From: an uncultured Syntrophaceae bacterium
Lineage (GTDB): Bacteria > Desulfobacterota > Syntrophia > Syntrophales > UBA2185
Length of the DNA stretch: 51,811 nucleotides
NCBI GenBank assembly: GCA_903893135.1
Contig: CAITLA010000273.1
Coordinates: forward strand, 1-51,811
Reading direction: 5' to 3'
The position numbers and the translations under genes were made by a program. Of this stretch, positions 7,131 to 32,455 are shown one piece after another. Under the pieces are notes generated by a model. That model had not been told where the DNA came from. It did not search any database and was given only the letters and a program-made list of their open reading frames with translations. Each line of letters starts with the position of its first letter. The first letter of the stretch is position 1.

Positions 7131-7817
7131 ATGTGTAATGCATTCTGCATTTTATTCGGGGCAATGAATTTGACGAGTGAGGAAATTAATGGGAGACAGG
7201 TACTTGAAGTCGGGGCATGTAACGTTAATGGAAGTCTGCGTCCCCTTATCGAATCTTGGTGTCCATCAAAATACATAGGCGTAGACATCGTTGAGGGAGT
7301 CGGCGTTGATGAAATTTGTAGTGCTTATAATGTAGTAAACAAATTCGGCAAGGAAAGTTTTGATATCATAATATCTACAGAAATGCTCGAGCATGTGAGG
7401 GACTGGAGAAATGTCATTTCTAACCTTAAGAATGTTTGCAAGCCAAACGGCATCCTATTACTAACTACACGCACAAGAGAAGCTGAATTCCATGCGTGGC
7501 CTTATGATTTTTGGAGATATGAAATTGAAGATATGAGAAATATCTTCCCCGATTTCATTATCGAAAAACTCGAATATGATAAATTTAGCCCTGGCATATT
7601 CTTAAAGGCCAAAAAGCCACTTGATTTTGTCGAACATAACCTCTCTTCCATTCAATTGTATTCCATCATTACAGAAAGTCGAATCATCGATATAGATGAA
7701 AAAACGATCACGTCTTTTAACAGGAAGTATCGAATGTACCTGATGTTAAGAAATAGTTACCTATCGGTCGGAACTTTCATTTCCAAGATCATAAAACGCG
7801 TACTGAATATTAAATAA
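7131..7817 (+). CDS. Class I SAM-dependent methyltransferase
   Basis: Motif I-like VLEVGACNVNGS and post-I/II FDIIISTEMLEHV. The sequence is visibly AT-richer than the flanking genes. It lies between the two copies of the 368-bp repeat. Confidence 0.75.
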   Translation: MCNAFCILFGAMNLTSEEINGRQVLEVGACNVNGSLRPLIESWCPSKYIGVDIVEGVGVDEICSAYNVVNKFGKESFDIIISTEMLEHVRDWRNVISNLKNVCKPNGILLLTTRTREAEFHAWPYDFWRYEIEDMRNIFPDFIIEKLEYDKFSPGIFLKAKKPLDFVEHNLSSIQLYSIITESRIIDIDEKTITSFNRKYRMYLMLRNSYLSVGTFISKIIKRVLNIK

Positions 7818-7870
7818 GAGGGGCTAAATACGTCAAGAAATGATGTGATCGATCATGGTCCCTCAGTAAT

Positions 7871-8266
7871 ACCTCAACGTCCGGCAGGCTTCAATCATGG
7901 AAAAATGTTCTGGAAGAAGATTTCATCAGTCAGCCAATACTGGTCTATGGCATTACAGGATATCGTTTTCTGGATGCGCAATATCCACGCGTCCTTGCCG
8001 AGACGGGACTTTTAGGACTTCTCACCTTCTTCATTCTTCTTTTTTCCATCTATATGAATGCCTTACATACGTATAGGGGCACCGCAGACTCCCTTTTTAG
8101 CGGTCTTTCTCTCGGTTATCTTGCGGGCTTTACGGCAATGCTCGCACATTGTATAGGAACCAACACCTTCATCATCGTCCGCATCATGGAACCATTCTGG
8201 TTTCTGACTGCCATGATAATAATGATCCCGGAAATTGAAGCAGAAGCAAAAAGAGTGGCAATTTAG
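7871..8266 (+). pseudogene. 3' fragment (about 130 codons) of a second O-antigen ligase/Wzy-like gene
   Basis: Frame 2 is open from 7844 with no ATG before 8054. The translation TSTSGRLQSWKNVLEEDFISQPILVYGITGYRFLDAQYPRVLAETGLLG... parallels residues about 332-455 of the 5578-6987 product. Its C-terminal tail differs (AEAKRVAI). Confidence 0.8.
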
Positions 8267-8690
8267 GATATAAGAATTTAGATAGGATGCAACAGACAGC
8301 TTTTGAATATTTTTATTCGAACATTTTACTGAGAATATGAAGAAGAGTAATTACAAAACTTCTTTCGCCAAGCCTCGCAAGCTACTATTCAGTAAGTGTT
8401 AATCCTATAATAGATCCGCCTCTGTGGTTTGATAATTTCTCAAGAATTCAATTGGAAAATAGAGTAAGTAGAAATAGATTTTGTTGGATCCAGACATTAA
8501 ATCCTGAGGCTAAAGAAAATGTGCCTAAAATAATCATGGGTGATTATTCATCAATAGTATAATGGGGGCGACGATATCAGCTGCAAGACAAATCGTTGCC
8601 GCAGTCAGTCTTGCCGGAGTAATTAAGAAATACTCTGAGACTACCCAAGCATGGGTCTCGCCAACTTGAATAAAACCATCATCTAATCTC

Positions 8691-9992
8691 ATGGGTCAAT
8701 TTACAAGGAATATCGGCGAATCAATGGTCACCTCTATCGCCTCGTTGATTCTCGGGATGATACTTTCCATTGTGCTGGCTCGCTACTTACAGCCAGAAGG
8801 TTATGGTAAATACTCCTTTATTTTTTTAGTTTGCTTTCTCGTATACCAGGTCAGCCATCTTTCAATTTCTGGTGCGAATATATTTCTTGTGGGAAAAAGA
8901 ATATTCAGTCCTTCTCAAACCGGTACCGCCTCTTTGATTATCTCTTTTGGTTTAGGTCTTGTCGGACTTCTTTTATTCGGACTCATAGCAAACCTGGGAC
9001 CTATCAGGGAAGAAATTATCCAAAAAGGAATAGGATATAATTTGCTTTGGATTGCAGTAGCGACAGTGCCTATTCTGATGCTTTCAGACAACCTGAAAGG
9101 TATTTTCCTTGGAATGGAGAAAATACGCCTTGTCAACATCCTACTGCTCTCGTACTTAGGTTTTCAGTTGTTTTCTAGTTTTATTTTTGTGGTCTTATTA
9201 AAAATGGAGCTTACCGGGGCGATTGTTGCCTACTTGTTAGCCAACATAGCAGGGTCATTCTTAGTTTTAGCTTGTTTTATGAGATCACCAAATTTTGAGA
9301 AGGTTCACTTTGCCTCTTATATAAAGCAAGCGCTGGCCTATTCCTGGAAACTTCACCTTGGAGCCATCGTCTTTTTCTTGATCTATAGACTGGACGTGTT
9401 CCTCATCGTATATTTAACAGGAGACATGGTGGCTGTGGGATTTTATGCGGCTGCAGTAGGGTTTGCAGAAAAAATTGATATCATCCCCCGCGTCGTTTCG
9501 AGTGTGCTTTTCCCAAGGATAACGACGATAACAAAAGAAGAGGTCCGCAAATATGGTCCTTTTCTTTCACGAATGACTTTATTGCTTGGCGGACTTCTGG
9601 CGTTGTTCCTGGCTACTATCTCCTACTACGTGGTTGTGCTGTTATTGGGCGTAGAATATGAGTCAGCAGTTATTCCGCTCTGTATCCTTCTGCCAGGTAC
9701 TGTTTTTCTTGGTGGAGGACGCATAGTGAGTACTGAGCTTATGGGACAGGGAAAGACCGATATTCTTGCTGTAGCAAATTGCACCGCCTTGGTCTTCAAT
9801 GTAGTTTTAAATTTGTTATTTATTCCTAAATTCGGCATAAATGCCGCTGCAGCCGTTTCTTCCATTACATACGCCGTTATGTTTATCATTGAATTACGGG
9901 GCTCCTCGCAGCTATCAGGTCTTTCTGTCTCGGAATATTTAATACCGCGGAAAGATGATTTCTTTGAAATTCGCCGACAGCTGTTATCATAA
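8691..9992 (+). CDS. Wzx-type oligosaccharide flippase (MOP superfamily polysaccharide biosynthesis protein)
   Basis: 433 aa with about 12 TM helices. Typical Polysacc_synt organisation and locus context. Confidence 0.85.
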   Translation: MGQFTRNIGESMVTSIASLILGMILSIVLARYLQPEGYGKYSFIFLVCFLVYQVSHLSISGANIFLVGKRIFSPSQTGTASLIISFGLGLVGLLLFGLIANLGPIREEIIQKGIGYNLLWIAVATVPILMLSDNLKGIFLGMEKIRLVNILLLSYLGFQLFSSFIFVVLLKMELTGAIVAYLLANIAGSFLVLACFMRSPNFEKVHFASYIKQALAYSWKLHLGAIVFFLIYRLDVFLIVYLTGDMVAVGFYAAAVGFAEKIDIIPRVVSSVLFPRITTITKEEVRKYGPFLSRMTLLLGGLLALFLATISYYVVVLLLGVEYESAVIPLCILLPGTVFLGGGRIVSTELMGQGKTDILAVANCTALVFNVVLNLLFIPKFGINAAAAVSSITYAVMFIIELRGSSQLSGLSVSEYLIPRKDDFFEIRRQLLS

Positions 9993-10130
9993 TTACACTT
10001 CTTGTCGAATTTCTTAGCAAATTAAAGGGGTCATTCGTGACATTCATATCGCGAAGACCGGTTTCCATCAAACATATGCTCGTCCGTCTGATCTCATCTG
10101 AAAAAAGTTTTGACAGGTTAGTGAACTAAC

Positions 10131-11351
10131 ATGCACATTTGTATTATTTCTGCATTTGCAATTACAGAAAAAGATAACTTGGGAGGCGTCCACACCCATA
10201 CTGAAATGCTTTCAAATATCTTAACTAAAATGGGGAACAAAGTTACCTTTATTACTGCTGGTGATCAGAACGAATCTCATGAAAAGACGATCAATGGTAT
10301 CAGAGTTATCTTTACTCCAGGCAGCAAGACTGAAGTGGTGGATAAGGAGTGGATAAGAAATCTTTGTAATACTTTTAACGAACTCCAAAAGAAGGATCCC
10401 GTTGACTGCATTTTTTCCGAAGGTTATTATGCCTACGGTCTGCAGGGCCATCATATTTTTAGTAAAGTCCCGATTGTTACCTTTGTACATAATTTTCATC
10501 TAACTCAGTTTTACAAGAACTTCAGTGAAGTGCGGAGCATCCGATCACTTGCAAGTTATGTTTTTAAAACCGTCCCACGTTTGGTCTTCAGGATGCTGAA
10601 ATTTGAAATCCCGTTCTTTCAAAGTTCTCATTTCGTCATTTCTGTCTCTGAGCTGAATGCCAAATACCTTCAGAATGTATATATGATTCCGAAACACAAA
10701 CTTAGTGTAATACATAACTGGGTGAACGTAGATGAGTTCAGCCCGAACTACTCTTATAAATCTGAATATAGAAGACGGTTCCATCTTTCCAAGGATACCA
10801 TCGTTTTCCTACTGGTTGGTGCTCTATGGAGACCTAAAGGATTTCATGTCGCTATTAAATCTTTTATTAAATTTGTTGAGCGGTTTCCGGATGCTCTCTT
10901 GATGATCGCTGGCACTGGGGTAGACGAAGAAAGTTTGCGAAAACTCGTTGCTGAAAATAATTTGATTACGGACAGAGTTAGATTTTTAGGTTTGTGGAAA
11001 CATTCCGAGCTACCATACCTTTACAATTTGGCGGATATCTTCTTAATACCGTCCATACACCCGGAAGGACATGCCTATACTTTGATTGAAGCGATGTCCT
11101 GTGGACTTCCATCAATTGCAACAAAATTGGGGGGGAACATCGAGACCATTGGCGACGCAGGAATCTTAGTCCCACCAAGGGATGAAGATGCCATGCTAAA
11201 GTCAATGATTGAATTGGCACAAGATGCCCGGAAAAGAGAGTATCTTTCTCACAACGCAAGGGAACGAGTCTTAGAATATTTTTCCGAAAAGATAGCGTCC
11301 GAAAAATTCCTGTCGCTTCTTGCCAAGATTCCTCCCGAGAAAAGGCATTAG
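10131..11351 (+). CDS. Glycosyltransferase family 4 (GT-B, retaining)
   Basis: C-terminal EX7E region PSIHPEGHAYTLIEAMSCGLP, plus GG..E..GDAG. It is a paralogue of the 12048-13325 product. Confidence 0.9.
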   Translation: MHICIISAFAITEKDNLGGVHTHTEMLSNILTKMGNKVTFITAGDQNESHEKTINGIRVIFTPGSKTEVVDKEWIRNLCNTFNELQKKDPVDCIFSEGYYAYGLQGHHIFSKVPIVTFVHNFHLTQFYKNFSEVRSIRSLASYVFKTVPRLVFRMLKFEIPFFQSSHFVISVSELNAKYLQNVYMIPKHKLSVIHNWVNVDEFSPNYSYKSEYRRRFHLSKDTIVFLLVGALWRPKGFHVAIKSFIKFVERFPDALLMIAGTGVDEESLRKLVAENNLITDRVRFLGLWKHSELPYLYNLADIFLIPSIHPEGHAYTLIEAMSCGLPSIATKLGGNIETIGDAGILVPPRDEDAMLKSMIELAQDARKREYLSHNARERVLEYFSEKIASEKFLSLLAKIPPEKRH

Positions 11352-11363
11352 GTCAAAGATCCC

Positions 11364-12014
11364 ATGTTTATTGATGAATCTCTATGGATTAAGAGCAACC
11401 TGAGTCAGTTGTATTTGCCGCCCAGAAGCCGCATTCTTGACATCGGCTCATCTACTACAGACTTTCGTGCAACGCAACCCCATATAACCGAAAATGTTTA
11501 TAGACCACTTAATGAAAGAGGCTTTGATATTATTCACTTTGATGCGCGGCCCGGCGATGGCATAGATATCGTAGGCGATATCGAAAATCCGGACATAATC
11601 GAGCAGATAGGAGAAAAATTCAATCTTGTGCTATGTGCCAACTTACTCGAACACGTATCTAACGTTGAAAGTACTGTAGGTAATGTAATTAACCTGGTAC
11701 GCAAGGATGGCTACCTTCTATTAACCGCACCTAACAAATATCCAAGACATGATGATCCGATAGATACCATGTATCGTCCATCAGACAGAGAATTACAAGA
11801 ACTGGCTTCCAGACACGCTGCCATAACGATTATTGCCTCTGAAATCTTAGACATTAGAAATCACATTTATTATTTTTATGAATCCAGGTATCCCTTTTGG
11901 GGCTACCGTAAATTCCGATTCTGGAGATATTATTTTAATCGCTTTCGATGGAAGCAGTCCTGTTTGCTCTTAAGAGTGCATTCACAATTCGATCGTTGCT
12001 TGGAAATCAGATGA
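11364..12014 (+). CDS. Class I SAM-dependent methyltransferase
   Basis: ILDIGSSTTDF (motif I) and FNLVLCANLLEHV. Confidence 0.75.
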   Translation: MFIDESLWIKSNLSQLYLPPRSRILDIGSSTTDFRATQPHITENVYRPLNERGFDIIHFDARPGDGIDIVGDIENPDIIEQIGEKFNLVLCANLLEHVSNVESTVGNVINLVRKDGYLLLTAPNKYPRHDDPIDTMYRPSDRELQELASRHAAITIIASEILDIRNHIYYFYESRYPFWGYRKFRFWRYYFNRFRWKQSCLLLRVHSQFDRCLEIR

Positions 12015-12047
12015 TTATAGATTCTGTCATTCAGCCTTATCCACGGA

Positions 12048-13325: not shown

Positions 13326-13334
13326 GCTTATCGT

Positions 13335-14126
13335 ATGCATAGCGGCTATTCATTAGAACAGATAAAGAAGGCATATATACAAAAGAAGGAATGGGAGAAA
13401 CAATTCCCCATCAACTATTTTTTTGTCCGCCCCATCTCATTTTATATTACTTACGTAATTCTGAAAATTACGACGAGGGCTGATCGAATTGCTTATTTCG
13501 GAGCCTTGTTGGGGATATGTGGATGTTTTTTTCTCGCATATTCTTTCCGATGGTCCGTCTGGCCTGGAATTATTTTTGTCGCATTATTTTCCATTTCCGA
13601 CGCTGTTGACGGCAATGTGGCGAGAACCACAAACGACGAAACGCTCTGGGGAATTTATCTGGATGGCCTGATCGGTACTCTCATCGAAACAAGTTATCTC
13701 TTTTTTCTCGGAACTGGATTGTATCTTTCGGGTACCGGCATTAGCGACCCGATCATTTCATCATTTTTCCATGAACATGCTCATTATGTGCCTTTTGTCT
13801 TCGGGTCACTAATTACCATATTCAAATTATGGTCATTTTACTTCGCAAGTTCATATGAGATATTTCAGTCACGCAAAGAAGGTGTATCGCCATTTACTGA
13901 AGCACATGCAAAGAAAACAATTGGCACATCCCGATTCAGTAAACAATGGTACTTTTTAATTTTTATCAACCTTGATTCCCTGAACAATCAATTGTTGCTA
14001 TTAATTATATCCGCCATTTTCAAACTGGAAATATGGTTTTTAATATTTTTCACATGTTATTTCGCAGCCAAGGCACTGCTATACCTTCTCTATTATTTCA
14101 AAAAAACAAGTAAAGCTCTCCGATGA
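13335..14126 (+). CDS. CDP-alcohol phosphatidyltransferase family membrane protein
   Basis: Motif DAVDGNVARTTNDETLWGIYLDGLIG approximates D-G-x2-A-R-x8-G-x3-D-x3-D, with the last Asp not conserved. Multi-TM protein. Confidence 0.65.
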   Translation: MHSGYSLEQIKKAYIQKKEWEKQFPINYFFVRPISFYITYVILKITTRADRIAYFGALLGICGCFFLAYSFRWSVWPGIIFVALFSISDAVDGNVARTTNDETLWGIYLDGLIGTLIETSYLFFLGTGLYLSGTGISDPIISSFFHEHAHYVPFVFGSLITIFKLWSFYFASSYEIFQSRKEGVSPFTEAHAKKTIGTSRFSKQWYFLIFINLDSLNNQLLLLIISAIFKLEIWFLIFFTCYFAAKALLYLLYYFKKTSKALR

Positions 14127-14213
14127 TTCCCTGCATCTGTTTTTGTAGCAGGTGTGGTCAGTTCATAAAGAAATCGTTTGCTATTAAGAACTGACTGCAT
14201 TTAAGAATGTCAT

Positions 14214-14420
14214 TTGCGTCATCAAATGTACTCATTAAGAGCCTTTGATCATATCCTGCCACACATTGGCGATTACCAATTACCCTTTCCGCATCCGGGA
14301 AGCTGGGCGCTCAACGAAGATTCATGCAAAGGTCTCGGCACTATTATGAGAACCCTCAAAGTAAAGCATGTTCTGGAATTGGGGATGTTCACATCAGGAT
14401 ATTATTTAAGCCTACACTGA
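14214..14420 (+). pseudogene. Possible fragment of a class I (Methyltransf_24-like) methyltransferase
   Basis: 68-aa ORF in a 600-bp gap. GSWALNEDSCKGLGTIMRTLKVKHVLELGMFTSGY resembles the region leading into motif I (..iLElG.f.G.S) and then stops. Confidence 0.3.
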
Positions 14421-14720
14421 ATTATCTATGAAAGTAACGACTTCGGAAGACAATTTTGCTAGTATACGGAAATTCTCATCTCGGAGGTCGCGAAATGACA
14501 AAAGCTCAGAAAAATATCAGCAGAAAGCTTCGTGTGCTGTCCAATGCTCAGCAAATCCGGCAGACTTTTTATGAATACTGATCAGCAAGATCGATATTTT
14601 CCTCTATCTATTCGCACTATATTATCCGAGTTGTCACCTATGCCGTTTACTTTCTTTTCCGCGCACAGAAGCGGCTAGAATAAATCCATGGCATAGGATT
14701 GAATATATGGAGAACAGTGA

Positions 14721-15392: not shown

Positions 15393-15544
15393 AAAAAAGA
15401 AATATCCACGTCTTAATATACTCGCGTGGCATCATTTGCGGTGCTTATCGCATAATGGTAGATATTCTCAAAAATATCGACAGAAACAAGTTTCGACTTT
15501 CTGTTGCCTACAAACCGGAATATGATGATCCCAGTTCTCCTTAA
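15392..15544 (+). pseudogene. 5' fragment (about 50 codons) of a GT4 glycosyltransferase gene with no start codon
   Basis: Frame 2 reads EKRNIHVLIYSRGIICGAYRIMVDILKNIDRNKFRLSVAYKPEYDDPSSP*. This parallels the N-terminus of the 16478-17638 GT4 (INILMLSASLSLTGTHRILHDLVSGLDHQKFNISIAFKPEFSGP). Confidence 0.55.
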
Positions 15545-15648
15545 CTATGGTGTGGTATCGGTGTTGATGGAAAATGAGTATCGAGTGAGCGAATTTTCCG
15601 GTTCAGCAATCCGATTTGGGGCTGTTTCACCTGTTACTAGGAGCTTCT

Positions 15649-16437
15649 ATGATTACAGAATTATTTAGACAGCCGAAATATATCCTGACAATTACAAAAC
15701 TAAAACATATTTATGATGCGCTGAGAGAACCTCATCACGCTATAAAGGTATTTAAATACCACTATCGCAGAGTTTCCGAACCGGCTTTCATAGATTTTTT
15801 CTCCAAGCAATGGGGATGTTCAGATCGGGATATTATTCAAGCCTACACCGGATTAACTGATAACGCTCCTCTCTGGCAGGAAATCAAAGAGAAGCTCTCT
15901 GTTTACCCTAGCGGTTACGGCTTACAGATGACCAGGGAACTTCCCTGCCTTTATTTACTCATTAGATTGACACAGCCTGATACAGTAATAGAAACAGGAG
16001 TTTCGTCTGGCGCTTCTTCTACATATATTCTACGTTCTTTACACGATAACAATAGAGGCAGACTCTATTCCATAGACTTACCACCTGAGAATCTTCCAGA
16101 GGGTAAAGAGAGCGGTTGGATCGTGCCTCAATATCTCAGAAATAGATGGTCATTGCACATTGGCGATTCAAAGGAACTTTTGGAGCCACTATTGGATAGC
16201 GTTGGAGAAATTGACTGTTTCATGCACGATAGCCTTCATACCTATGAGCACATGTTGTGGGAATTTAGAACGGTATGGAAACACTTGAGATCAGGAGGGC
16301 TCCTTCTGTCTCATGATGTCGGCGCCAATGACGCATTTCTTGATTTTATGCAGGAAAAATGCATTCCATGGTCAAAATATCGTGTTGTTCATGTGCTCGG
16401 CGGATTCATAAAACCCAATGACCGGAAAAGGGATTGA
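15649..16437 (+). CDS. Class I SAM-dependent methyltransferase (Methyltransf_24 / CmcI-like)
   Basis: ATG at 15649 is preceded by AGGAG; the ORF track's TTG at 15616 is less likely. Motifs VIETGVSSGASSTYIL and LLLSHDV. Confidence 0.75.
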   Translation: MITELFRQPKYILTITKLKHIYDALREPHHAIKVFKYHYRRVSEPAFIDFFSKQWGCSDRDIIQAYTGLTDNAPLWQEIKEKLSVYPSGYGLQMTRELPCLYLLIRLTQPDTVIETGVSSGASSTYILRSLHDNNRGRLYSIDLPPENLPEGKESGWIVPQYLRNRWSLHIGDSKELLEPLLDSVGEIDCFMHDSLHTYEHMLWEFRTVWKHLRSGGLLLSHDVGANDAFLDFMQEKCIPWSKYRVVHVLGGFIKPNDRKRD

Positions 16438-16477
16438 GATTAATAGTTAATTTGCCAGACTAAAATAGCTCTTGAAA

Positions 16478-17638
16478 ATGAAACCAATCAACATATTAAT
16501 GCTTTCAGCATCATTAAGTTTGACGGGCACTCACCGCATTCTACATGATTTAGTTTCGGGACTCGATCATCAAAAGTTTAACATTTCGATTGCATTCAAA
16601 CCTGAATTCTCGGGACCAGGTAACGATCTTTTGGCATCTTTTAGTGATCAAGGCTTTTCAGTATATGCACTAGGAGGCCAGAAACTTTTTGGCATGCAAG
16701 GATTTCTGCAGCTTTATCAGGTCATTCGTAGAAACAAAATAGACATTATTCATTGCTGGGATGACCTAGTTATTATAGCACGATTTTTGAAGTTATTCAC
16801 TCGTTGCCATGTTATTGAAAGTCACGGTAACCCCGTTATGTCTAAGGGGTCTCTATCTTACTACTTGCTCAATAAACTTTCATCTATCCTATTGGATGGT
16901 GTTATATTTCAGTCGGAAGGGATAATGAAAAGTTATGAAAATACAAAAGTGATTTTTCTAAAAAGAATAAAGAAGTCTGTCATCCATAATTGCATAAACG
17001 CCAAAACGATTAATAAGACAACCTATAACAGGAGCGAGATAAAAAAGAGATTTGGTGTGGATGACAGAACAATAGTCTTGACAAATATTGGTTACTTTAA
17101 TGAACAAAAGGCACAAGAATTATTAATCCAATCGATAAAGATAGTGGTCGACAGAATTCTACAAGTCAAATTAATTATAGTAGGATGGGGACCTTTGGAA
17201 AACAAATTGCGCGAATTGGTGAAGACACTCAAAATCGAGGACAACGTAATATTTGCAGGCAAGCGTCAACATGAAGAAGTTTTTGAAATATTATCAATCA
17301 CCGATCTATTTGTCCTTTCTTCACTATGGGAGGGATTCGGCTTAGTGATTGGAGAAGCTATGGCCATGGGGAAACCGGTTGTTGCAACAGAAACCGACGG
17401 GAGCCAAGTTCTTGTCGTTGAAAATGAAACGGGGCTATTAGTTCCGCCAGGCGATCCTCGTGCCCTTGCCGCGGCCATTATTTCGCTAATCCGTGACCCG
17501 GAACGAAGAGCCAAGATGGGTGAACTCGGTAGAATCAGGGTTACTACTCTTTTCTCACCGGAGAAGTTTATTCAGGCACATGAATCCTTCTATACTAAAA
17601 TCCTCAATCGAGGCACAGATAAAAATGGAACCAAATAA
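16478..17638 (+). CDS. Glycosyltransferase family 4
   Basis: EX7E region SSLWEGFGLVIGEAMAMGKP. The ATG at 16478 lies inside the TTG-started ORF. Confidence 0.9.
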   Translation: MKPINILMLSASLSLTGTHRILHDLVSGLDHQKFNISIAFKPEFSGPGNDLLASFSDQGFSVYALGGQKLFGMQGFLQLYQVIRRNKIDIIHCWDDLVIIARFLKLFTRCHVIESHGNPVMSKGSLSYYLLNKLSSILLDGVIFQSEGIMKSYENTKVIFLKRIKKSVIHNCINAKTINKTTYNRSEIKKRFGVDDRTIVLTNIGYFNEQKAQELLIQSIKIVVDRILQVKLIIVGWGPLENKLRELVKTLKIEDNVIFAGKRQHEEVFEILSITDLFVLSSLWEGFGLVIGEAMAMGKPVVATETDGSQVLVVENETGLLVPPGDPRALAAAIISLIRDPERRAKMGELGRIRVTTLFSPEKFIQAHESFYTKILNRGTDKNGTK

Positions 17639-23766: not shown

Positions 23767-24477
23767 ATGAAAGAGATACCTGTTCTGCTCTATCATTATG
23801 TTGGAAATTACCCGGCGGAAATGATGGAAGACGGCCTATCGCCTGAAACCTTTGCGTTTCAGATGAACTTTCTTTCTGAAAACGGCTACAGCGCCGTTGC
23901 GCTTGACCGGGCAGTGGATCACCTGACAGGAAAAATAAAATTGCCTCCCAGATCGCTGGCAATCACAATTGACGGAGGCTATCAAGACGCTCTCACCAAC
24001 GCGTTGCCCGTCTTGAAGAAGCATCAATTCCCAGCAACATTATTTATTGCCCCCGAGTTTATAGGTAGAGCGCAATTAATTAATGGGCAGCCTATCCAAT
24101 GCCTGAATTGGAATGGAGTTGAGGAAATTATTAGTTGTGGTTATGAAACGGGTCTTTTGGCATACGAGGGCAGAGCCATCAGAGCTCAAAATGATGAAGA
24201 ATCCATTAGGAGAAGCATTTTAAAGTCATTGGAGCTTCTTAAACGCAGTTCTAATGTGCAAGTCAGGTATTGCGCATTCAAAGAAGGTGTTCCTCAAGAA
24301 TCATTATGGAATTTTTTGCAAGAACTTGGTTTTCAAGCGGTCTTCACTCAATGCCCCACGAATCAAGCACCGACGCCTGCCGGCATAGGCCGGATACAGA
24401 TCGACGACGATGATCACAATATCTTTCTTACGAAAATATCAGACACATACCTCTTCTTCAAAGATAAGCCCTCCTAG
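23767..24477 (+). CDS. Polysaccharide deacetylase (NodB-homology) family protein, divergent motif 1
   Basis: VLLYHYV... and AITIDGGYQD, where canonical NodB enzymes have TFDDG. Confidence 0.65.
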   Translation: MKEIPVLLYHYVGNYPAEMMEDGLSPETFAFQMNFLSENGYSAVALDRAVDHLTGKIKLPPRSLAITIDGGYQDALTNALPVLKKHQFPATLFIAPEFIGRAQLINGQPIQCLNWNGVEEIISCGYETGLLAYEGRAIRAQNDEESIRRSILKSLELLKRSSNVQVRYCAFKEGVPQESLWNFLQELGFQAVFTQCPTNQAPTPAGIGRIQIDDDDHNIFLTKISDTYLFFKDKPS

Positions 24478-24643
24478 AAGTATATTCGCAGGTACAAGCT
24501 CGATCAATTAGCCCACCATATTTCACAATTATTGAACTATTTCATAACAAGTTGAGATAGTCCCCGACTACACACAAAAACTTAACTGCACAACACTTAT
24601 CTAATATACGCATATTTCTCGACTTACATATTTCTTTAGCCAC

Positions 24644-26398: not shown

Positions 26399-26627
26399 CT
26401 CTCCAGTAACCTAACAAAGAGTGATAATAATAGAGCTTGTGGGATCCATTCGTATGCATATTTATTCCAACCTACAACGATTGCGATGATCTTGATGGCC
26501 CCATTTGATAGCATTCACACACCAAAATTTCATAAAGTTACTCAGATCTATCGAAAACGCCCAGTGATTTTGCAAGATCGGGGTTTTTTGATAATTTGTT
26601 ATCTTCTCAAAGAATAAGTGTAAACCC

Positions 26628-28553
26628 ATGTGCGGGATCTGCGGCAAACTGACAACAGATGGTAAACCTGTAGACGAAGGCATGCTTCGAAAGATGTGTT
26701 CCGTCCTGTCGCACCGTGGGCCTGATGATGAGGGTGTGTACATAGGCGCTAAGCATGCATCTATCAGTTCACACGTGAATATCGGTCTGGGACACAGAAG
26801 ACTCAGCATCATCGATCTGTCCGAGGCAGGCAGGCAGCCCATGTCCAATGAGGACAAAACTGTCCGGATGGTCTTCAACGGTGAAATCTACAATTTTCAA
26901 CCGTTAAGGGCTGAACTTGAGAGCAAGGGCCATCGATTTTATTCACACACGGATACGGAGGCAATCATCCACCTCTATGAGGAAGAAGGAATCGACGCAG
27001 TGAAAAGGCTTGTCGGGATGTTTGCCTTTGCCCTCTGGGACGAAAGAAAACAAGCACTCATCCTGTGCAGGGATCATATTGGCATCAAACCTCTCGTCTA
27101 TTCATGGGACGGGAATGCCCTCGTTTTTGCCTCAGAGATTAAAGGGGTTCTCCAGGATCCGGACGTGAAAAGGGAGATGGACTGGGATGCCCTGAGTCTT
27201 TATCTGACATTCAATTATGTCCCGGCGCCCTATACGATTTTCAAGAGCGTAAGAAAACTAAAACCCGGCCACATTCTCATTTTTCAAAATGGGGAAGTAC
27301 GGGAAGAAGCCTACTGGAATATCCAGCCGAATCTCCACAAAAAAAGCGTTGAAGAAAATTTCGCTGCCCAAAAGCATGAGCTATTTAGAACATTGGAAGA
27401 GGCGGTCAGCATGCAGATGATCGCCGATGTACCCCTGGGCGCATTTCTGAGCGGCGGCATCGATTCGAGCATTATCGTGGGGCTCATGGCCAGGAATTCC
27501 AGCCAGCCGGTAAAGACATACACCATCGGCTACAAGGATATGCCCCTGTTTGACGAAACTGATTACGCCAGGGATGTCGCACTGTTCAACCGGACGGACC
27601 ACCACGAGATAAAGCTCGATGCCAGAGATATTATGGAAGCCATCCCGCAGGTGCTTGCTTCGTTCGATGAACCCTTCGGTGATTCTTCCGCAGTTCCCAC
27701 CTTTGTCGTATCAAGAGAAACGAGAAAAGGGGTTAAGGTTGCCCTTTCCGGCGACGGCGGCGATGAGCTTTTTGCGGGCTATAGAATGTATAAGGGTGAA
27801 GATTTGTACAGCAGATATCGCTTGATTCCTTCATTCATTAGAAAAAATCTCATAGAACCTTTTCTGATGTCTCTATCCGACTCGCGCGATGAAAACTTTT
27901 CCGAATATATCAGAAGGTCAAAGAAATTCATCAGGGGCGCAAAGGATACATTCGCGGAGCGCTTCTTCACCTGGAATGAAATCTTCAACGGAGATCTGAG
28001 AAAAGAGATTCTCAGTGGTTCCAAAACCGTGGACAAGGAACTCGGCATAAAGTTGATGGCATCGAGATTGAACGAGTTGCAGGATGATCACATAAACAGA
28101 ATGCTTTATGCCGATCTCAAGGAATCCCTGCCCGGCGACATGCTGAAGAAGGTGGATGCCATGAGCATGTTTCATTCTCTCGAAGTTCGTGTTCCCATCT
28201 TAGACCACAGGGTATGTGAACTGGCCTTTTCCATGAGAGGAGACTGGAAACTTCGAAACGGCAAGAGCAAATATGTCTTAGTGGAAACCTTTAAAGATAT
28301 CCTGCCCCCTTCCCTGCACAACCGGCCCAAATGGGGATTCGAGATGCCTATCAGCAAATGGCTCAAGACGGACTTGAGATATCTGATCGAAGAATATCTG
28401 TCAAAGGACGTTATTACGCGGCAGGGCATCTTCAATTACGCTGTCATCCAGGACCGTATAAACAATCTGATGTCAAACAAGGTTGATACATCGTGGCAGA
28501 TATGGAACCTCATCGTCTTCCAGGTCTGGTATGGGCAGTATGGGAAATATTAA
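26628..28553 (+). CDS. asnB: Asparagine synthetase (glutamine-hydrolysing) family amidotransferase
   Basis: N-terminal MCGICG (Ntn Cys2), PP-loop FLSGGIDSS, 641 aa. Confidence 0.93.
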   Translation: MCGICGKLTTDGKPVDEGMLRKMCSVLSHRGPDDEGVYIGAKHASISSHVNIGLGHRRLSIIDLSEAGRQPMSNEDKTVRMVFNGEIYNFQPLRAELESKGHRFYSHTDTEAIIHLYEEEGIDAVKRLVGMFAFALWDERKQALILCRDHIGIKPLVYSWDGNALVFASEIKGVLQDPDVKREMDWDALSLYLTFNYVPAPYTIFKSVRKLKPGHILIFQNGEVREEAYWNIQPNLHKKSVEENFAAQKHELFRTLEEAVSMQMIADVPLGAFLSGGIDSSIIVGLMARNSSQPVKTYTIGYKDMPLFDETDYARDVALFNRTDHHEIKLDARDIMEAIPQVLASFDEPFGDSSAVPTFVVSRETRKGVKVALSGDGGDELFAGYRMYKGEDLYSRYRLIPSFIRKNLIEPFLMSLSDSRDENFSEYIRRSKKFIRGAKDTFAERFFTWNEIFNGDLRKEILSGSKTVDKELGIKLMASRLNELQDDHINRMLYADLKESLPGDMLKKVDAMSMFHSLEVRVPILDHRVCELAFSMRGDWKLRNGKSKYVLVETFKDILPPSLHNRPKWGFEMPISKWLKTDLRYLIEEYLSKDVITRQGIFNYAVIQDRINNLMSNKVDTSWQIWNLIVFQVWYGQYGKY

Positions 28554-29727
28554 GGTCATACACGTTATCACCCGCTTCGATAAGGGCGGAGCTGCTGAAA
28601 ATACCTTTCTGACTGTAACTGGCCTCGACAAAAACAGATATGAGGTCATCCTGATCAGAGGCCTTTCACATGAATCCAATATGGGGCCCTCAGAAACCAG
28701 AGCTGTAGAAAGTAGCCTGGAAGAAGCCGGCAAGAACGGGGTTAGAATATTAACGTTTCCCGAACTCGTGAGAAGAATAGATCCATTTAATGATTTTAAG
28801 ACCATTCTCAAGTTAATAAGAATTTTCAGAGAGGAGCGGCCGCATATCGTCCACACTCACACATCCAAGGCAGGCATCCTTGGCAGATGGGCGGCTCGCC
28901 TGACAGCAGTTCCCATAATCATTCATACACCCCACGGGCATGTGTTCTGGGGCTATTTCAGCAAATGGAAAGCGGCAGTATACATTTTATTGGAAAGACT
29001 GACGGCAATCATTACAGATAGAATCATTATACTGACGGAACAAGAAAAGAAGGATCATCTCCGGTACCATATCGCTGATGGAAACAAATTTACAGTCATT
29101 CATAGTGGCGTTGACCTGAGCAAATTTACTGACACTCGAGTAAATGTCGCCGAAATGAAGAACAAATTGGGGATAGCACAAGAGGCATTTGTCGTCGGAA
29201 CAGTCGGCAGACTGACTCCCGTCAAGGGACATAAATATCTAATCGAGGCAGCAGCAAAGATTCTTCGTAAAATACCTGAGATAGTTTTCGTATTTTTAGG
29301 TGACGGCGAACTCATGAATGAACTGAAAACGCAGGCCGCATCAGCAGGTATTAGCAACAAAGTGACATTCTTAGGCTGGGTTCCGAATGTCGCGGAATTT
29401 ATGTCCACCTTTGATATTTTCGTTCTTCCCTCCCTGAACGAAGGAATGGGAAAAGTTCTTGTAGAGGCGATGGCCATTGGCAAACCGATCATCGCCAGTG
29501 ACGTCGGAGGCATTTCAGATCTCGTCACTGACGGCAAGAACGGATTGCTCGTCCCTCCCATGAATTCAGATGCCCTTGCCAACGGTATCGAAGCGCTTCT
29601 TGAAAATTCCCAGACGAGAATGAATATGTGTGAAGAAGGAATGAAGTTCTCGCAAGAATACGATGTGAACTCAATGGTAAGTAAAATAGATTGCTTATAC
29701 CTTCAATTACTCTCATTGAAACACTGA
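28540..29727 (+). CDS. Glycosyltransferase family 4
   Basis: The start is probably the ATG at 28540 (MGNIKVIHVITRFDKGGAAENT), overlapping the asnB end. EX7E region PSLNEGMGKVLVEAMAIGKP. Confidence 0.9.
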   Translation: MGNIKVIHVITRFDKGGAAENTFLTVTGLDKNRYEVILIRGLSHESNMGPSETRAVESSLEEAGKNGVRILTFPELVRRIDPFNDFKTILKLIRIFREERPHIVHTHTSKAGILGRWAARLTAVPIIIHTPHGHVFWGYFSKWKAAVYILLERLTAIITDRIIILTEQEKKDHLRYHIADGNKFTVIHSGVDLSKFTDTRVNVAEMKNKLGIAQEAFVVGTVGRLTPVKGHKYLIEAAAKILRKIPEIVFVFLGDGELMNELKTQAASAGISNKVTFLGWVPNVAEFMSTFDIFVLPSLNEGMGKVLVEAMAIGKPIIASDVGGISDLVTDGKNGLLVPPMNSDALANGIEALLENSQTRMNMCEEGMKFSQEYDVNSMVSKIDCLYLQLLSLKH

Positions 29728-29760
29728 CCGAGTCTTTATTTTCGATTCTGTGTTCATAAT

Positions 29761-31074
29761 ATGACAAACAAAAGACTGATTCTGGCAATTTTCCTGGCAG
29801 GAGCTTTGTGGAGGGTTTTTCTCTTCGTCGGGTTGTGCAACTACGACGATTTCGCTTATACCAACATAGCACTGGATATGCTTGACGGGCGATTTCATTT
29901 CCTGACGGCGGACAATCGCTATGCGTGGCGTTTCCTTCTCACGGCACCTACGGCTTTGGCATTTTTGTTCTGTGGTGCGCGGGAGTGGTCGGCCATATTC
30001 TTTCCTTTCTTTTGCTCTTTGGGAAACATCATCGTTGTGTGGCTGATCGGCCGCGAGCTCTTCAACGAAAATGTGGGTCTTCTCGCGGCGGCGCTGGCTG
30101 CCGTTTTCCCCAACAGTGTCGTCTACGGCACCATGCTGTTCCCCGAGGAGATCCTGTCATTCTTTGCCGGTATGGCTTTTCTTTTTTTTCTTTGGACAGA
30201 ATCAGAACGAATAAAACCTGTGCACGGTTATTTACTGGCCGGTGTTTTCATTGCCTTTGCCTTTGCCGCCCGCGAGACTGGCGCTTTTCTGATGCCTCTT
30301 TTTTTTCTAATGAGCAAAAGAAAAAAGTCGCTTCCTATTTCATTACTATTCCTGCCCATGATAGTCTATTTCTCAGTCGAAATGATAGTAAGTTTGTGGG
30401 CGACGGGTGATCCCTTGCACCATTATTCCCAACTGCAGCAAACCTTTCAAATTCTATTTGCTGAGCATCAACAAACTTACGCCGCAGATACCTATATTGT
30501 GAGCCTCTTCGGCGGAAATTTATATGGATTGGCCCACTTTGGGCTTTATTACCCGTTTTTTGTTTTGTCCGTTTTTTATCTGACATTGAAAAAGAAAATC
30601 GCGCCAGCCAAGCCACTCCTCCTCTGGATGGCCGTTTATTTTCTCTATTATCAATTCGGAAGTACCAGCATAACCCATTATGTGCCCCTCGCTAAGGTGC
30701 TACGATTCATTTCTATTTTGACGATGCCCCTTCTTTTGATTTTATCGTACTCTTTTCTTGAGATTTATGCCGCCGGGCGATGGAGAAAAGCCGTTTTCGT
30801 CGTGATTTTGGCCGTTATTATGGCAACGTCCCTGATTGGTGCAGTTAAAGCGTCTGCGAAACATAGGCAATATTTTCAAGAAGAAGGTGGCGTGGAGAAA
30901 TATTACCGGATCGTTAACGATATTGAAACCAAACGGCCGAGACGTGTTATAACGGCCGCACGCATCGAAAAATATCGGTTAAGTTACTTCTGGGCCGCTT
31001 CACACGGAAGGGAAACACGACCGGAAATTGCCTACGCCGGTGAGCGGTCCGCACTGCAGAATGGCCGTGAGTAA
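29761..31074 (+). CDS. GT-C fold membrane glycosyltransferase (ArnT/PMT-like)
   Basis: 437 aa, multi-TM. First-loop motif CNYDDFAYTNIALDMLDG. Confidence 0.7.
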   Translation: MTNKRLILAIFLAGALWRVFLFVGLCNYDDFAYTNIALDMLDGRFHFLTADNRYAWRFLLTAPTALAFLFCGAREWSAIFFPFFCSLGNIIVVWLIGRELFNENVGLLAAALAAVFPNSVVYGTMLFPEEILSFFAGMAFLFFLWTESERIKPVHGYLLAGVFIAFAFAARETGAFLMPLFFLMSKRKKSLPISLLFLPMIVYFSVEMIVSLWATGDPLHHYSQLQQTFQILFAEHQQTYAADTYIVSLFGGNLYGLAHFGLYYPFFVLSVFYLTLKKKIAPAKPLLLWMAVYFLYYQFGSTSITHYVPLAKVLRFISILTMPLLLILSYSFLEIYAAGRWRKAVFVVILAVIMATSLIGAVKASAKHRQYFQEEGGVEKYYRIVNDIETKRPRRVITAARIEKYRLSYFWAASHGRETRPEIAYAGERSALQNGRE

Positions 31075-31101
31075 TGCTCCTGCGATGGAGAGTAGGCAGC
31101 G

Positions 31102-31130
31102 TTGACTTTGTCGACCTTCTTTGATATCGT
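31102..31130 (+). promoter_or_regulatory. Candidate sigma-70 promoter (TTGACT-17 nt-TATCGT)
   Basis: The hexamers were read directly in the 110-bp gap upstream of the GT2 gene. There is no other support. Confidence 0.25.
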
Positions 31131-31184
31131 TCGCAGCATATCATCGCTTGTTCGAAACACCTTATAAATTAAATAGGTATATAT

Positions 31185-31874
31185 ATGAAACTTTCGGTTG
31201 TGATTCCTTGTTATAATGAAGCCGGCACCATCGAACAAATTATTGACGCTGTTCTGCGTTCTCGTTATCCCGATAAAGAAATCATTATCGTAGATGACTT
31301 TTCCACCGATGGGACGAGAGCAATCCTCAAAGACAGGATAGAAGCAAAGGTCAGCCGGATCATCTACCAACCCTCTAACAAGGGGAAGGGTGCTGCGTTG
31401 AGAGAAGGGATTCGCGAAGCGACAGGAGACATCGTGATCATTCAGGATGCTGACCTAGAATATGATCCTTCTGAATATCCCAAAGTAATCCAGCCCATCG
31501 TTGAAGACAAAGCTGATGTAGTCTACGGTTCCCGCTTTGCGGGGGGTGAACCCCATCGCGTTGTCTATTTCTGGCACCAGATAGGTAACAGCCTGATCAC
31601 CCTCATTTCCAACATGTTCACCAACCTCACTTTTACAGATATTGAAACATGCATGAAGGCCTTCCGGCGAGAGCTTATCCAGTCGATCACAATTGAAGAA
31701 GATCGTTTTGGGGTCGAACCGGAAATCACGGCCAAGATAGCGAAAATCAGATGCCGGATCTATGAAGTAGGTATCTCCTATTATGGCAGAACCTATAATG
31801 AGGGGAAAAAGATCACTTGGAAAGATGGTTTTCGGGCACTATACTGCATCGTCAAATATAATGTCTTGAGATGA
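31185..31874 (+). CDS. GT2 polyprenyl-phosphate sugar synthase (Dpm1/ArnC/GtrB-like)
   Basis: [27 protein letters not shown] and QDADLEYDP, at 229 aa. These are typical of dolichyl/undecaprenyl-phosphate glycosyltransferases. Confidence 0.88.
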
Positions 31875-32455
31875 AAGAACCCTTTCTGGAACCCATCCTG
31901 CGAAGAATGAGGGTAAAAATAGTGCTACCGACGATTCAACGGTATCCTGATTGCCAGCTTCTGGATGTCGGCTGCGGGTGGGATTACCGCTTGCTGAAAA
32001 CAGTAGAGCCCTTTATTGGCAGAGGCGTCGGCATAGATTTTAAGGTCCAGGAGATGGAAAGCACGAAAATAAAAACGGTACGGATGCGCATGACAGATCA
32101 ACTGCCCTTTGAATCAGAGTCATTCGACATCGTCACCATGCTGGCTGTTCTTGAACACCTCTCAGATCCGCTTCGTATGATGTCTGAAACGGAGCGGGTT
32201 TTAAAGAAAGAAGGTCGACTCGTGCTGACCGTTCCCAGTAAGATTGCCAAACCGGTGCTGGAATTCCTGGCTTATCGCCTCCATATCGTCAGTGAGGTTG
32301 AGATGAAAGACCATAAGCAATATTTCAATCACAATGATCTGAGGAAACTTTTATGTCAATCCGGAATGACCATAGAGCAACACCGATATTTCCAGATGGG
32401 CATGAACAATTATTGTGTTGCCATGAAGAAAACCCCAACGGACCGCAAACTATGA
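31871..32455 (+). CDS. Class I SAM-dependent methyltransferase (type 11-like)
   Basis: ATGA overlap with the GT2 stop. [11 protein letters not shown] and [13 protein letters not shown]. Confidence 0.85.

Follow-up and report, generated by a model that had tools for sequence, protein, structure and literature searches.

Capsule and exopolysaccharide (EPS) loci of the Wzx/Wzy-dependent type that export through Wza and Wzc, among them those for the Escherichia coli group 1 capsule and colanic acid and the Klebsiella K loci, typically hold either no tailoring methyltransferase (MT) or a single one. Here we describe a locus of this general build with eight, found in a stretch of 51,811 nucleotides from an uncultured Syntrophaceae bacterium (contig CAITLA010000273.1 of assembly GCA_903893135.1), which we analysed whole and refer to as the window. 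Between positions 7131 and 32455, genes for eight class I S-adenosylmethionine (SAM)-dependent methyltransferases (MT1 to MT8) are interleaved with glycosyltransferase (GT) genes in one polysaccharide locus, as had been proposed in a preliminary description of the window. Like the Wzx/Wzy loci, the window encodes an initiating polyprenyl-phosphate transferase, Wzx, a Wzy_C protein, Wzc and a Wza-like exporter, and has conserved flanks around a low-GC centre of shuffled cassettes. This arrangement is the usual pattern of serotype-variable surface-polysaccharide loci. Unlike them, the window adds a B12-binding radical SAM (rSAM) enzyme to its eight MTs, has three GT-C enzymes and a 1066-aa Wzc with an SH3 domain, and carries no acetyl- or pyruvyl-transferases; for acetyltransferases, Pfam scans of the window agree with the preliminary description. 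The product is most likely a heteropolysaccharide of EPS or capsule type, with the MT region forming the variable low-GC centre of the locus.

Methyltransferase genes also cluster with GT genes in mycobacteria, as the rmt and fmt genes for glycopeptidolipids (GPL) do. The locus for the phenolic glycolipid (PGL) PGL-tb is reported to have about one MT per GT (PMC3594219). These loci resemble the window in that several distinct SAM-dependent MTs, which in mycobacteria methylate sugars after transfer, are clustered with GTs, and in that one of the mycobacterial MT types belongs to a CmcI/Methyltransf_24-related clan, as does MT4. They differ from it in their acceptor, a lipid-anchored oligosaccharide on a polyketide or peptide rather than a Wzx/Wzy repeat unit, as well as in phylum and envelope, and no orthology was detected (MT4 matches RMNT_CmcI with 17 bits against a cut-off of 23). 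Mycobacterial methylmannose polysaccharide (MMP) is located in the cytoplasm, and its cluster comprises four genes, ManT, MeT1, MeT3 and MmpH. This heavily O-methylated polysaccharide is reportedly made by a dedicated GT and methyltransferases (PMC9883506). At the level of gene logic, MMP and methylglucose lipopolysaccharide (MGLP) are like the window in placing a GT alongside dedicated MTs to give a heavily O-methylated hydrophobic glycan. However, MMP is a cytoplasmic homopolymer whose four-gene cluster includes no flippase or exporter, whereas the window encodes an export pathway, many different GTs and no counterpart of the hydrolase. An MMP/MGLP-type pathway was rejected on the presence of Wzx, Wzy_C, Wzc and Wza and the absence of any glycoside hydrolase from the window in Pfam scans. 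The mycobacterial analogy offered in the preliminary description is therefore superficial: it fails on topology, since the Wzx, Wzy_C, Wzc and Wza-like genes point to an exported product and not to a cytoplasmic one.

Direct coupling of the two activities is known from chlorovirus PBCV-1, where the A064R protein joins two rhamnosyltransferase domains to an MT domain that methylates the newly transferred rhamnose at O-2; a second methyltransferase, A061L, acts only once this step is complete and adds a methyl group at O-3 (PMC9614988). This physical link between a class I MT and a GT mirrors the adjacencies in the window and the fusions in its relatives, although the viral proteins belong to an N-glycan system with unrelated GT families and their likeness to the window proteins is one of shared fold class. 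Extensive methylation of a bacterial surface glycan is documented for the S-layer O-glycan of Kuenenia stuttgartiensis, where methyl groups occur on internal and reducing-end residues and not only at the terminus (PMC5088730). Anammox metagenome-assembled genomes (MAGs) also carry MT7 orthologues, at 61% identity in Scalindua and Brocadiaceae, in GT-rich loci; unlike the product proposed here, however, the Kuenenia glycan is a protein-linked hexasaccharide, and the anammox loci fetched contain two MTs per 21 kb. We regard these observations as a lead, not a link. In the general protein O-glycosylation cluster of Tannerella forsythia (Bacteroidota), MT genes are reportedly interleaved with GT genes in the species-specific part; unlike the window, that cluster has fewer MTs and its glycan goes to proteins.

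Two other kinds of system were considered for the window and rejected. A WbdD-type chain-terminating system does not fit because Pfam scans found no ABC transporter and the MTs are without a kinase domain. An XrtA/PEP-CTERM EPS locus does not fit either, given that no exosortase is present in the window and that the scores for TIGR03108 (AsnB; 574 against 817 bits), TIGR03007 (123 against 279) and TIGR03018 (117 against 231) fall below their cut-offs. Literature searches on polysaccharide loci rich in MTs, on EPS of Syntrophales and on methylated sugars of sludge EPS returned nothing on loci of this type.

Methyltransferases and their glycosyltransferase neighbours

All major ORFs of the window were scanned with Pfam under its curated gathering cut-offs, with NCBIfam as a second library. 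The eight MT ORFs, all on the + strand and at the positions given in the preliminary description, each score above the gathering cut-off of a class I SAM-methyltransferase family:

7131-7817, + strand: MT1, class I methyltransferase with atypical motif I (VLEVGACNVNGS); PF13489 Methyltransf_23, 48.6 bits (cut-off 27)
11364-12014, + strand: MT2, class I methyltransferase with motif I LDIGSS (ILDIGSS); PF13489 Methyltransf_23, 42.0 bits
14721-15392, + strand: MT3, class I methyltransferase (LHLGCG); PF08241 Methyltransf_11, 40.2 bits (cut-off 21.2)
15649-16437, + strand: MT4, TylF/CmcI-like methyltransferase; PF13578 Methyltransf_24, 79 bits
17625-18374, + strand: MT5, canonical Methyltransf_11/25 protein (LDIGVGGG); PF08241, 76 bits, and Methyltransf_25, 74 bits
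20588-21442, + strand: MT6, zinc ribbon and Methyltransf_23 (VLDVGCGCG); PF13489, 50.7 bits
21502-22572, + strand: MT7, Trm112-like zinc ribbon, Methyltransf_11 and a conserved C-terminal helical extension; PF08241, 66.7 bits
31871-32455, + strand: MT8, Methyltransf_11 (LLDVGCG); PF08241, 57.4 bits

The N-terminal zinc ribbons noticed earlier in MT6 and MT7 are also real features of these proteins. That of MT6 reads CPYC...CKDC, with only a weak match to Zn_ribbon_IS1595, and that of MT7 is borderline by PF03966 (22.2 against a cut-off of 22) and matches NCBIfam Trm112_arch with E=1e-14. Motif I is canonical (GCG or GxGxG) in MT3, MT5, MT6, MT7 and MT8, and in MT4 takes the Methyltransf_24 form ETGVSSGAS. 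The glycine loops of MT1 (G[AS]xxVNG) and MT2 (GSS) are atypical but conserved in their families, and the Asp after strand 2 is invariant. Family alignments of 857 homologues of MT1 show G28 and G34 to be invariant and TTRS..YHGYPYDFWRY conserved, and those of 95 homologues of MT2 show an invariant G28, D60, LEH and H.DPIDTMYRP; across the two families the odd loop, the strand-2 Asp, an LEH motif and an H..P.D...R motif are invariant or nearly so. Decay of MT1 and MT2 was rejected, as their atypical loops are conserved family traits. MT7 belongs to a strongly conserved family with at least 634 homologues in many phyla.

AlphaFold models were made for two of the MTs, MT2 (pLDDT 91.9) and MT7 (pLDDT 90.2), and compared with the Protein Data Bank (PDB) by Foldseek, which gave probabilities of 1.0 and TM-scores of 0.5-0.63. 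A class I methyltransferase fold was found in all 50 top matches of MT2, one of which is a non-methylating member, the cyclase SpnF, and the top matches of MT7 are likewise class I methyltransferase-fold structures. No two of the eight MTs share more than 33% identity, and that over partial alignments; they are therefore distinct enzymes rather than copies of one another, and tandem duplication was rejected as their origin. The preliminary description had allowed that several of the ORFs might lack the SAM-binding fold or be pseudogenes. This is not what we found: in addition to the Pfam scores, all eight ORFs are full length, and the exact MT7 protein recurs with the same gene order on 23 contigs from several metagenomes. 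The eight MTs are real, intact and diverse.

The GT inventory by Pfam and NCBIfam, which also returned one AsnB and one CE4 gene, comprises six GT4, two GT2 and three GT-C genes (two PMT_2 and one GT87), all on the + strand:

10131-11351, + strand: GT4a; PF00534, 112 bits
12048-13325, + strand: GT4b; 37% identical to GT4a
16472-17638, + strand: GT4c; PF00534, 144 bits
18546-19460, + strand: GT2a; PF00535, 96.8 bits
19461-20588, + strand: GT4d; PF00534, 140 bits
22530-23705, + strand: GT4e, a 391-aa gene call; PF00534, 154 bits
24644-26398, + strand: GT-C, PMT_2/ArnT-like membrane glycosyltransferase (PMT_2a); PF13231, PF02366
28531-29727, + strand: GT4f; PF00534, 167 bits
29761-31074, + strand: second GT-C (PMT_2) membrane glycosyltransferase; PF13231, 55 bits
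31185-31874, + strand: GT2b, a short GT2 resembling polyprenyl-phosphate-sugar synthases; PF00535, 137 bits
34225-35556, + strand: GT87-family GT-C; PF09594, 58 bits

Many of the MT genes are physically tied to these genes. GT4c and MT5 overlap by 14 nt, GT4d and MT6 by 1 nt at the GT4d stop codon, MT7 and GT4e by 43 nt, and GT2b and MT8 by 4 nt, and MT2 starts 12 nt past GT4a; overall, five MT genes overlap a GT gene or stand at most 15 nt from one, and a sixth is about 35 nt away. The alternation given in the preliminary description (GT4-MT-GT4, then MT-MT-GT4-MT-GT2-GT4-MT-MT-GT4) is correct as an order of MTs and GTs but overlooked a CDP-alcohol phosphotransferase (CDP-OH) homologue at 13335-14126. 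Several of the adjacencies recur elsewhere. A GT4 gene lies directly 3' of the MT7 orthologue in 13 of 14 close orthologues (E<1e-100), the exception being a Syntrophales MAG (L008) with a GT9 gene in that place; the GT4d-MT6 adjacency is kept in L008, and the GT4a-MT2 adjacency in a further homologous locus, L168 (48% and 65% identity). Single proteins that combine a GT2 or GT4 domain with a methyltransferase domain were found in L004, L024, L070, L075 and L083. Coupling between GTs and MTs is thus supported by overlapping or abutting genes, adjacencies conserved elsewhere and fusion proteins; together with the A064R precedent, these features suggest that most of the eight MTs would methylate the residue that the neighbouring GT has put in place, at a stage when the unit is lipid-linked in the cytoplasm.

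The MT7 family also appears in smaller settings. Outside polysaccharide loci, the Trm112-MT and a GT4 gene form an isolated two-gene unit (L005:10001-12150 and L007:10001-12207), which stands alone in a Latescibacterota genome and about 3 kb from opposite-strand APS-reductase genes in the Olavius Delta 3 symbiont. This suggests that the MT7+GT4 pair can work as a self-contained module. An AsnB-type gene is present in about 40 of 80 MT7-anchored loci, and in several distant loci (L033, L031, L023, L006 and L018) it stands directly 5' of the MT7-family gene, with GT4 following as the next gene in L033 and L006 and one gene further on in L031. The trio of AsnB, MT7 and GT4 may be a functional unit.

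Methyltransferase density and cassette exchange

We compared the MT density of the window with that of other loci in a census, for which six-frame ORFs were searched with jackhmmer profiles seeded by the window MTs and GTs. For the window and L004-L007 these profiles recovered the labels given by Pfam; they can miss other MT families, which makes the counts for comparison loci lower bounds. A set of loci anchored on MT7 is biased upward by one MT, and a neutral set anchored on AsnB was run to correct this bias. MTs per ~21-22 kb were distributed as follows:

MT7-anchored loci of at least 18 kb (n=48): one MT in 17 loci, two in 13, three in 9, four in 5, five in 3, six in 1
AsnB-anchored metagenome loci of at least 18 kb (n=22): no MT in 7 loci, one in 8, two in 3, three in 2, four in 1, five in 1

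The window scores six in the MT7-anchored frame, where L008 is the sole other locus with that count, and four in the AsnB-anchored frame. When the 80 AsnB-anchored loci were pooled, they contained 0.54 MTs per 10 kb with an MT/GT ratio of about 0.35, as against 3.2 per 10 kb (8 MTs in 25.3 kb) and a ratio of 1.0 in the MT region of the window, about six times the density of the neutral loci. The Poisson probability of eight or more MTs against the AsnB-anchored background is 9e-5, to be read with the over-dispersion of that background. Four or more MTs per ~21 kb were found in 9 of 48 MT7-anchored and 2 of 22 AsnB-anchored loci from many phyla (9-19%), and the MT/GT ratio is at least 1 in 7 of 34 GT-rich MT7-anchored loci (Woeseiaceae, Latescibacterota, Acidobacteriota, Omnitrophota and Elusimicrobia). 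The preliminary description had counted comparable densities as routine in homologous loci among the points that would tell against its reading, and they do occur in part: L008 has 6 MTs in 21 kb, and L168, as annotated with Pfam, contains 5 in 20.6 kb (two of FkbM type), along with two radical SAM enzymes and a CDP-OH homologue. In L169, annotated likewise, the 10.7 kb that follow the MT1 orthologue contain 4. The window therefore lies at the top of the MT-density distribution, yet is part of a recurrent, uncharacterised locus type. It is notable, not unique, and differs from known systems of its kind in quantity, with no new principle.

Contigs of the same organism from several metagenomes (L001-L003) are 99.3-99.97% identical to the window over the parts covered, which include MT2-MT8, and give the same gene calls. 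The closest genome is that of the Syntrophales MAG L008, whose MT7 is 88% identical at the amino acid level. Aligned by blastn, the window and L008 share blocks of 75-95% nucleotide identity broken by replaced or absent cassettes. MT4, MT5, MT6 and MT7 are kept in L008 within this range, the MT4 homologue at 75%. At the position of GT4c, L008 has about 5.2 kb of different content and no GT4c counterpart; it is also without PMT_2a and the segment with MT8, rSAM and GT87 (31.9-35.8 kb of the window), and carries instead other methyltransferases, a SPASM radical SAM enzyme, an epimerase and a GT9. Further afield, the MT3 orthologue in L168 (66% identity) adjoins a CDP-OH homologue, and the MT1 orthologue in L169 (75%) comes after Wzm/Wzt. 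In L169 this ABC exporter, with a Wzt_C carbohydrate-binding domain (L169:7647-10687), lies between Wzy_C and MT1, where the window has nothing. The L169 context hints that MT1 might be a chain-end capping methyltransferase.

Close relatives differ in their MT and GT cassettes, which have been shuffled in the manner of serotype-variable loci. The GC content is 0.39-0.42 across the MT- and GT-rich centre (7-26 kb) and 0.44-0.48 on both flanks, in keeping with horizontal exchange of the central cassettes. Two remnants lie in this centre:

7868-8266, + strand: pseudogene, duplicated 3' end of wzy; 82.7% aa identity by blastx to residues 331-457 of the intact Wzy (5578-6987)
14214-14420, + strand: probable N-terminal stump of a ninth, Methyltransf_24/3-like MT; blastx to L019:2409-3146, E=1e-6

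Since the copy at 7868-8266 is a wzy 3' end, MT1 sits between wzy and a wzy stump, an arrangement that reads as the footprint of a cassette replacement. The second remnant keeps motif I (VLELGMFTSG) within 68 codons and then meets a stop; its match in L019 belongs to PF13578 and PF01596, and it is a probable decayed ninth methyltransferase gene.

Export machinery, proposed pathway and alternatives

The polysaccharide locus, of about 40 kb, is one co-directional cluster with short intergenic gaps, and in the ORF list of the window a long run of + strand ORFs extends from 43 to 43208. The order of genes is a Wza-like gene cut by the window edge, Wzc, an AbiEii module, Wzy_C, MT1 and Wzx; then GT4a, MT2, GT4b, the CDP-OH homologue, MT3, MT4, GT4c, MT5, GT2a, GT4d, MT6, MT7 and GT4e; then a CE4 deacetylase, PMT_2, AsnB, GT4f, the second PMT_2, GT2b, MT8, the B12-rSAM gene and GT87; and at the end a PHP-like protein, WbqC, PIG-L, DegT and a WecA-like initiating transferase. 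Genes for initiation, polymerisation and export are:

43-510, + strand: 3' part of a Wza-like outer-membrane polysaccharide export gene (SLBB); PF22461/PF10531, cut by the window edge
525-3725, + strand: Wzc-type chain-length regulator/tyrosine autokinase of 1066 aa; Wzz, GNVR, AAA_31 and SH3_3 domains
5578-6987, + strand: Wzy_C-family membrane protein; PF04932, 39.7 bits
8691-9992, + strand: Wzx-type flippase; PF01943, PF13440 (Polysacc_synt)
39693-40997, + strand: WecA/MraY-family polyprenyl-phosphate HexNAc-1-phosphate transferase (initiating enzyme); PF00953, 119 bits

The pair of a PCP-2a tyrosine autokinase and an OPX (Wza) protein is present, the autokinase with 171 bits to TIGR01007 (cut-off 108) and the Wza-like SLBB protein truncated by the edge; in L169 a complete Poly_export gene precedes the Wzc homologue. 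The initiating polyprenyl-phosphate sugar-phosphate transferase of Wzx/Wzy systems is also found (PF00953), with 116 bits, under the cut-off, to TIGR02380. The Wzy_C protein would be a polymerase, or possibly a ligase or O-oligosaccharyltransferase, among which Pfam does not distinguish. Judged by protein family, these are the components expected of a system that makes a Wzx/Wzy-type polysaccharide and exports it through a Wzc/Wza module. Further tailoring and precursor genes are:

13335-14126, + strand: CDP-alcohol phosphotransferase homologue between GT4b and MT3; PF01066, 32 bits (cut-off 22)
23767-24477, + strand: CE4 polysaccharide deacetylase; PF01522
26628-28553, + strand: AsnB-type glutamine amidotransferase; PF00733, 336 bits
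32471-33865, + strand: B12-binding radical SAM enzyme; PF02310 and PF04055
35753-37252, + strand: 499-aa protein with weak similarity to PHP/CehA-McbA metallohydrolases
37455-38135, + strand: WbqC-like protein; PF08889, 257 bits
38135-38752, + strand: PIG-L/LmbE-type de-N-acetylase; PF02585, 90 bits
38749-39786, + strand: intact DegT/DnrJ/EryC1 nucleotide-sugar aminotransferase; PF01041, 298 bits

The DegT gene, intact like those for WbqC and PIG-L, corrects the earlier statement that the window has no intact nucleotide-sugar gene. The B12-radical-SAM gene, by contrast, had been recognised correctly, and both of its domains were found. Its best NCBIfam match is HpnJ (TIGR03471), an identity that we rejected on score (251 bits against a cut-off of 578) and because no hopanoid genes lie nearby; the enzyme may or may not be a methylase. 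The best NCBIfam matches of GT2b are AglJ, dolichyl-phosphate hexose transferase, PpgS and ArnC, all under their cut-offs. The block from the PHP/CehA-like gene through WbqC, PIG-L and DegT to the WecA-like gene (35753-40997) is conserved with Nitrospirae L006:13409-18834, where an unannotated 530-aa gene takes the place of the 499-aa PHP-like gene. Its first genes also occur in the Syntrophales MAG L008 (18396-21065), with a homologue of the 499-aa protein at 86% nucleotide identity in the same spot before WbqC, and the fetched L008 stretch ends after WbqC. Presumably this block makes and installs the first, amino-sugar residue.

In the reading that we favour, and hold to be somewhat more probable than all others together, GT+MT modules make up a serotype-variable locus whose product is an exported heteropolysaccharide with multiple methyl groups. 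Gene content, intactness, fold family, conserved adjacencies and mosaic structure are observed; which acceptor each MT uses, in what sequence the steps run and how far methylation goes we infer. The WecA-like enzyme would start the unit on polyprenyl phosphate, with WbqC, PIG-L and DegT probably tailoring the first amino sugar. On the cytoplasmic side, the six GT4 enzymes and one or two GT2 enzymes would extend the lipid-linked oligosaccharide, which the eight unrelated class I MTs, possibly with the B12-rSAM enzyme, would modify; each MT most likely acts on the residue that the GT encoded next to it has just transferred, so that several residues of the unit would be methylated. AsnB-type amidation and CE4 deacetylation would be further modifications. 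Wzx would then flip the unit, the Wzy_C protein polymerise or transfer it, the GT-C enzymes add periplasmic branches using a polyprenyl-phosphate sugar from GT2b as donor, and Wzc and Wza export the product. Alternatively, one or two of the MTs might act with the CDP-OH homologue on a phospho-alcohol substituent. Taken as a whole, the observation in the preliminary description is confirmed and its interpretation partly supported; its claim that most residues are methylated is overstated, as this is not readable from sequence.

Several points weigh against a single, multiply O-methylated polymer. In the NCBIfam scan, which covered the eight MTs, the rSAM enzyme and the CDP-OH homologue, no curated equivalog cut-off was reached. 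The sequence and fold neighbours of the MTs in the PDB are a mixture of O-, N- and C-methyltransferases, including phosphoethanolamine N-methyltransferases and the sugar O-methyltransferases RebM and AtmM, so sugar O-methylation is something that we infer. Members of the Wzy_C family include ligases and protein O-oligosaccharyltransferases; the three GT-C enzymes, and Wzm/Wzt beside Wzy_C in L169, leave room for more than one product; and the MT7+GT4 pair occurs alone in L005 and L007, where its product may be a separate small glycoconjugate.

The most serious alternative, although an unlikely one, is that the locus combines two or more glycan pathways (for example, an EPS together with a protein O-glycan, S-layer glycan or lipopolysaccharide O-chain), which would share the MTs among them and leave no product exceptionally methylated. 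The breadth of the Wzy_C family, with its WaaL ligases and PglL-type O-oligosaccharyltransferases, is consistent with this, and the best, weak, NCBIfam match of the window protein is a 'putative O-glycosylation ligase'. The three GT-C enzymes are of protein-mannosyltransferase/ArnT type, at the same location L169 carries a Wzm/Wzt(Wzt_C) ABC exporter alongside Wzy_C, and the window locus formerly had a second copy of wzy. An extensively methylated S-layer O-glycan does exist in Kuenenia (PMC5088730), and the 61% identical MT7 orthologues lie in Scalindua and Brocadiaceae loci. However, the window has a single flippase, a single intact Wzy_C gene and a single initiating transferase, its genes are all co-directional with short gaps, and its conserved flanks and low-GC variable centre have the classic form of one serotype-variable locus.

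Quite unlikely, in our view, is that several MTs act away from sugar hydroxyls, for example by N-methylating a phosphoethanolamine-type group that the CDP-OH homologue would install or by forming uronic acid methyl esters, with others perhaps capping chain ends and so controlling chain length. The classification by profile and structure that the preliminary description had proposed places the MTs in the class I fold family, and neither sequence nor fold comparison assigns them O-, N- or C-specificity. PDB sequence searches returned no relatives for MT1 (E<=0.01), MT2 (0.05) or MT4 (0.01), two marginal matches for MT3 (E~0.03) and generic methyltransferase matches for MT5-MT8. Methyltransf_24, the family of MT4, is a TylF/CmcI-related group with many sugar O-methyltransferases. 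Phosphoethanolamine N-methyltransferases are among the best solved sequence relatives of MT7 and MT5 (E=6e-11 and 1.5e-6) and among the top fold matches of MT7, but at 15-18% identity this likeness is a generic Methyltransf_11 similarity.

A second line of evidence for non-sugar acceptors comes from the CDP-OH homologue. An MT adjoins it in L168 and L169, and in the window it is followed by the MT stump and then MT3. This recurrent neighbourhood suggests that some methyl groups may sit on a phospho-alcohol substituent, and gives some support to the caveat in the preliminary description that some MTs may act on non-sugar groups. On the other side, the homologue fails the complete motif D(x)2DG(x)2AR..G(x)3D(x)3D, its fourth and last catalytic Asp being replaced by a conserved Gly, so that the motif reads DxxDGxxAR..G...D...G in the window, L168 (7841-8623) and L169 (15793-16623). 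Pfam scans found no cytidylyltransferase gene for a CDP-alcohol in the window, and none is shown in L168 or L169. As to capping, the Wzt_C domain of the E. coli O8/O9a systems reads a terminal methyl or phosphomethyl cap, and the L169 orthologue of MT1 comes directly after a Wzm/Wzt exporter with this domain. The five MTs that overlap or closely abut a GT gene, rather than standing beside a phosphotransferase, again favour sugar acceptors.

It is very improbable that the number of MTs is mostly evolutionary debris, with redundant or inactive genes shuffled in and a sparsely methylated product: the locus does contain a wzy 3' copy, an MT stump and an inserted AbiEii module, and its cassettes differ between close relatives, but the eight ORFs are full length, the window copies of MT1, MT2 and MT7 keep their family motifs, MT4-MT7 are retained in L008 and the near-identical contigs of the same organism give the same gene calls.

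A broader extension of the favoured reading can be offered only tentatively. The window, L008, L168, L169 and scattered loci in Acidobacteriota, Omnitrophota, Latescibacterota, Nitrospirota and other phyla might stand for an uncharacterised class of exported hyper-methylated glycans, built from GT+MT modules in the form of overlapping genes or fusions, of which the Trm112-MT+GT4 pair would be one. Most repeat-unit residues would then be methylated, giving a hydrophobic extracellular polysaccharide of anaerobic syntrophs and an exported counterpart of the mycobacterial polymethylated polysaccharides, which are cytoplasmic. Methyl ethers raise the hydrophobicity of glycans and their resistance to glycosidases; if many residues were methylated, this would alter the adhesion of syntrophs to partners, particles and hydrocarbons and the persistence of EPS in peat and sediment. 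The interest of the locus lies in widespread uncharacterised GT-MT modules, and it adds no new category of system and resolves no long-standing question. Testable units include the Trm112-MT+GT4 pair with its large family, the GT4a-MT2 pair and the MT next to the atypical CDP-OH homologue, and characterising any of them would give an annotation to the hundreds of genes in glycan loci of uncultured bacteria that now bear the label 'methyltransferase domain-containing protein'.

Minor features and flanking genes

A promoter and terminator scan of 5-25 kb gave counts near shuffle expectation and no intergenic terminators, and was uninformative on operon structure. Wzc is unusually long at 1066 aa, with the bacterial SH3_3 domain at its C-terminal end (residues 913-969). 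Between wzc and wzy lies an AbiEii-type nucleotidyltransferase toxin gene (4560-5240; PF08843, 50 bits), flanked by small ORFs at 4259-4585 and 5191-5508 without a Pfam match; the stretch 4259-5508 looks like a toxin-antitoxin module inserted in the polysaccharide locus. Past the locus, a histidine kinase and a response-regulator/nucleotide-cyclase form a pair on the + strand (41275-43208), and the - strand from 43417 to 51776 encodes a 565-aa protein without a Pfam match, a TPR protein, a sigma-54 activator and four proteins with a prepilin-type N-methylation motif.

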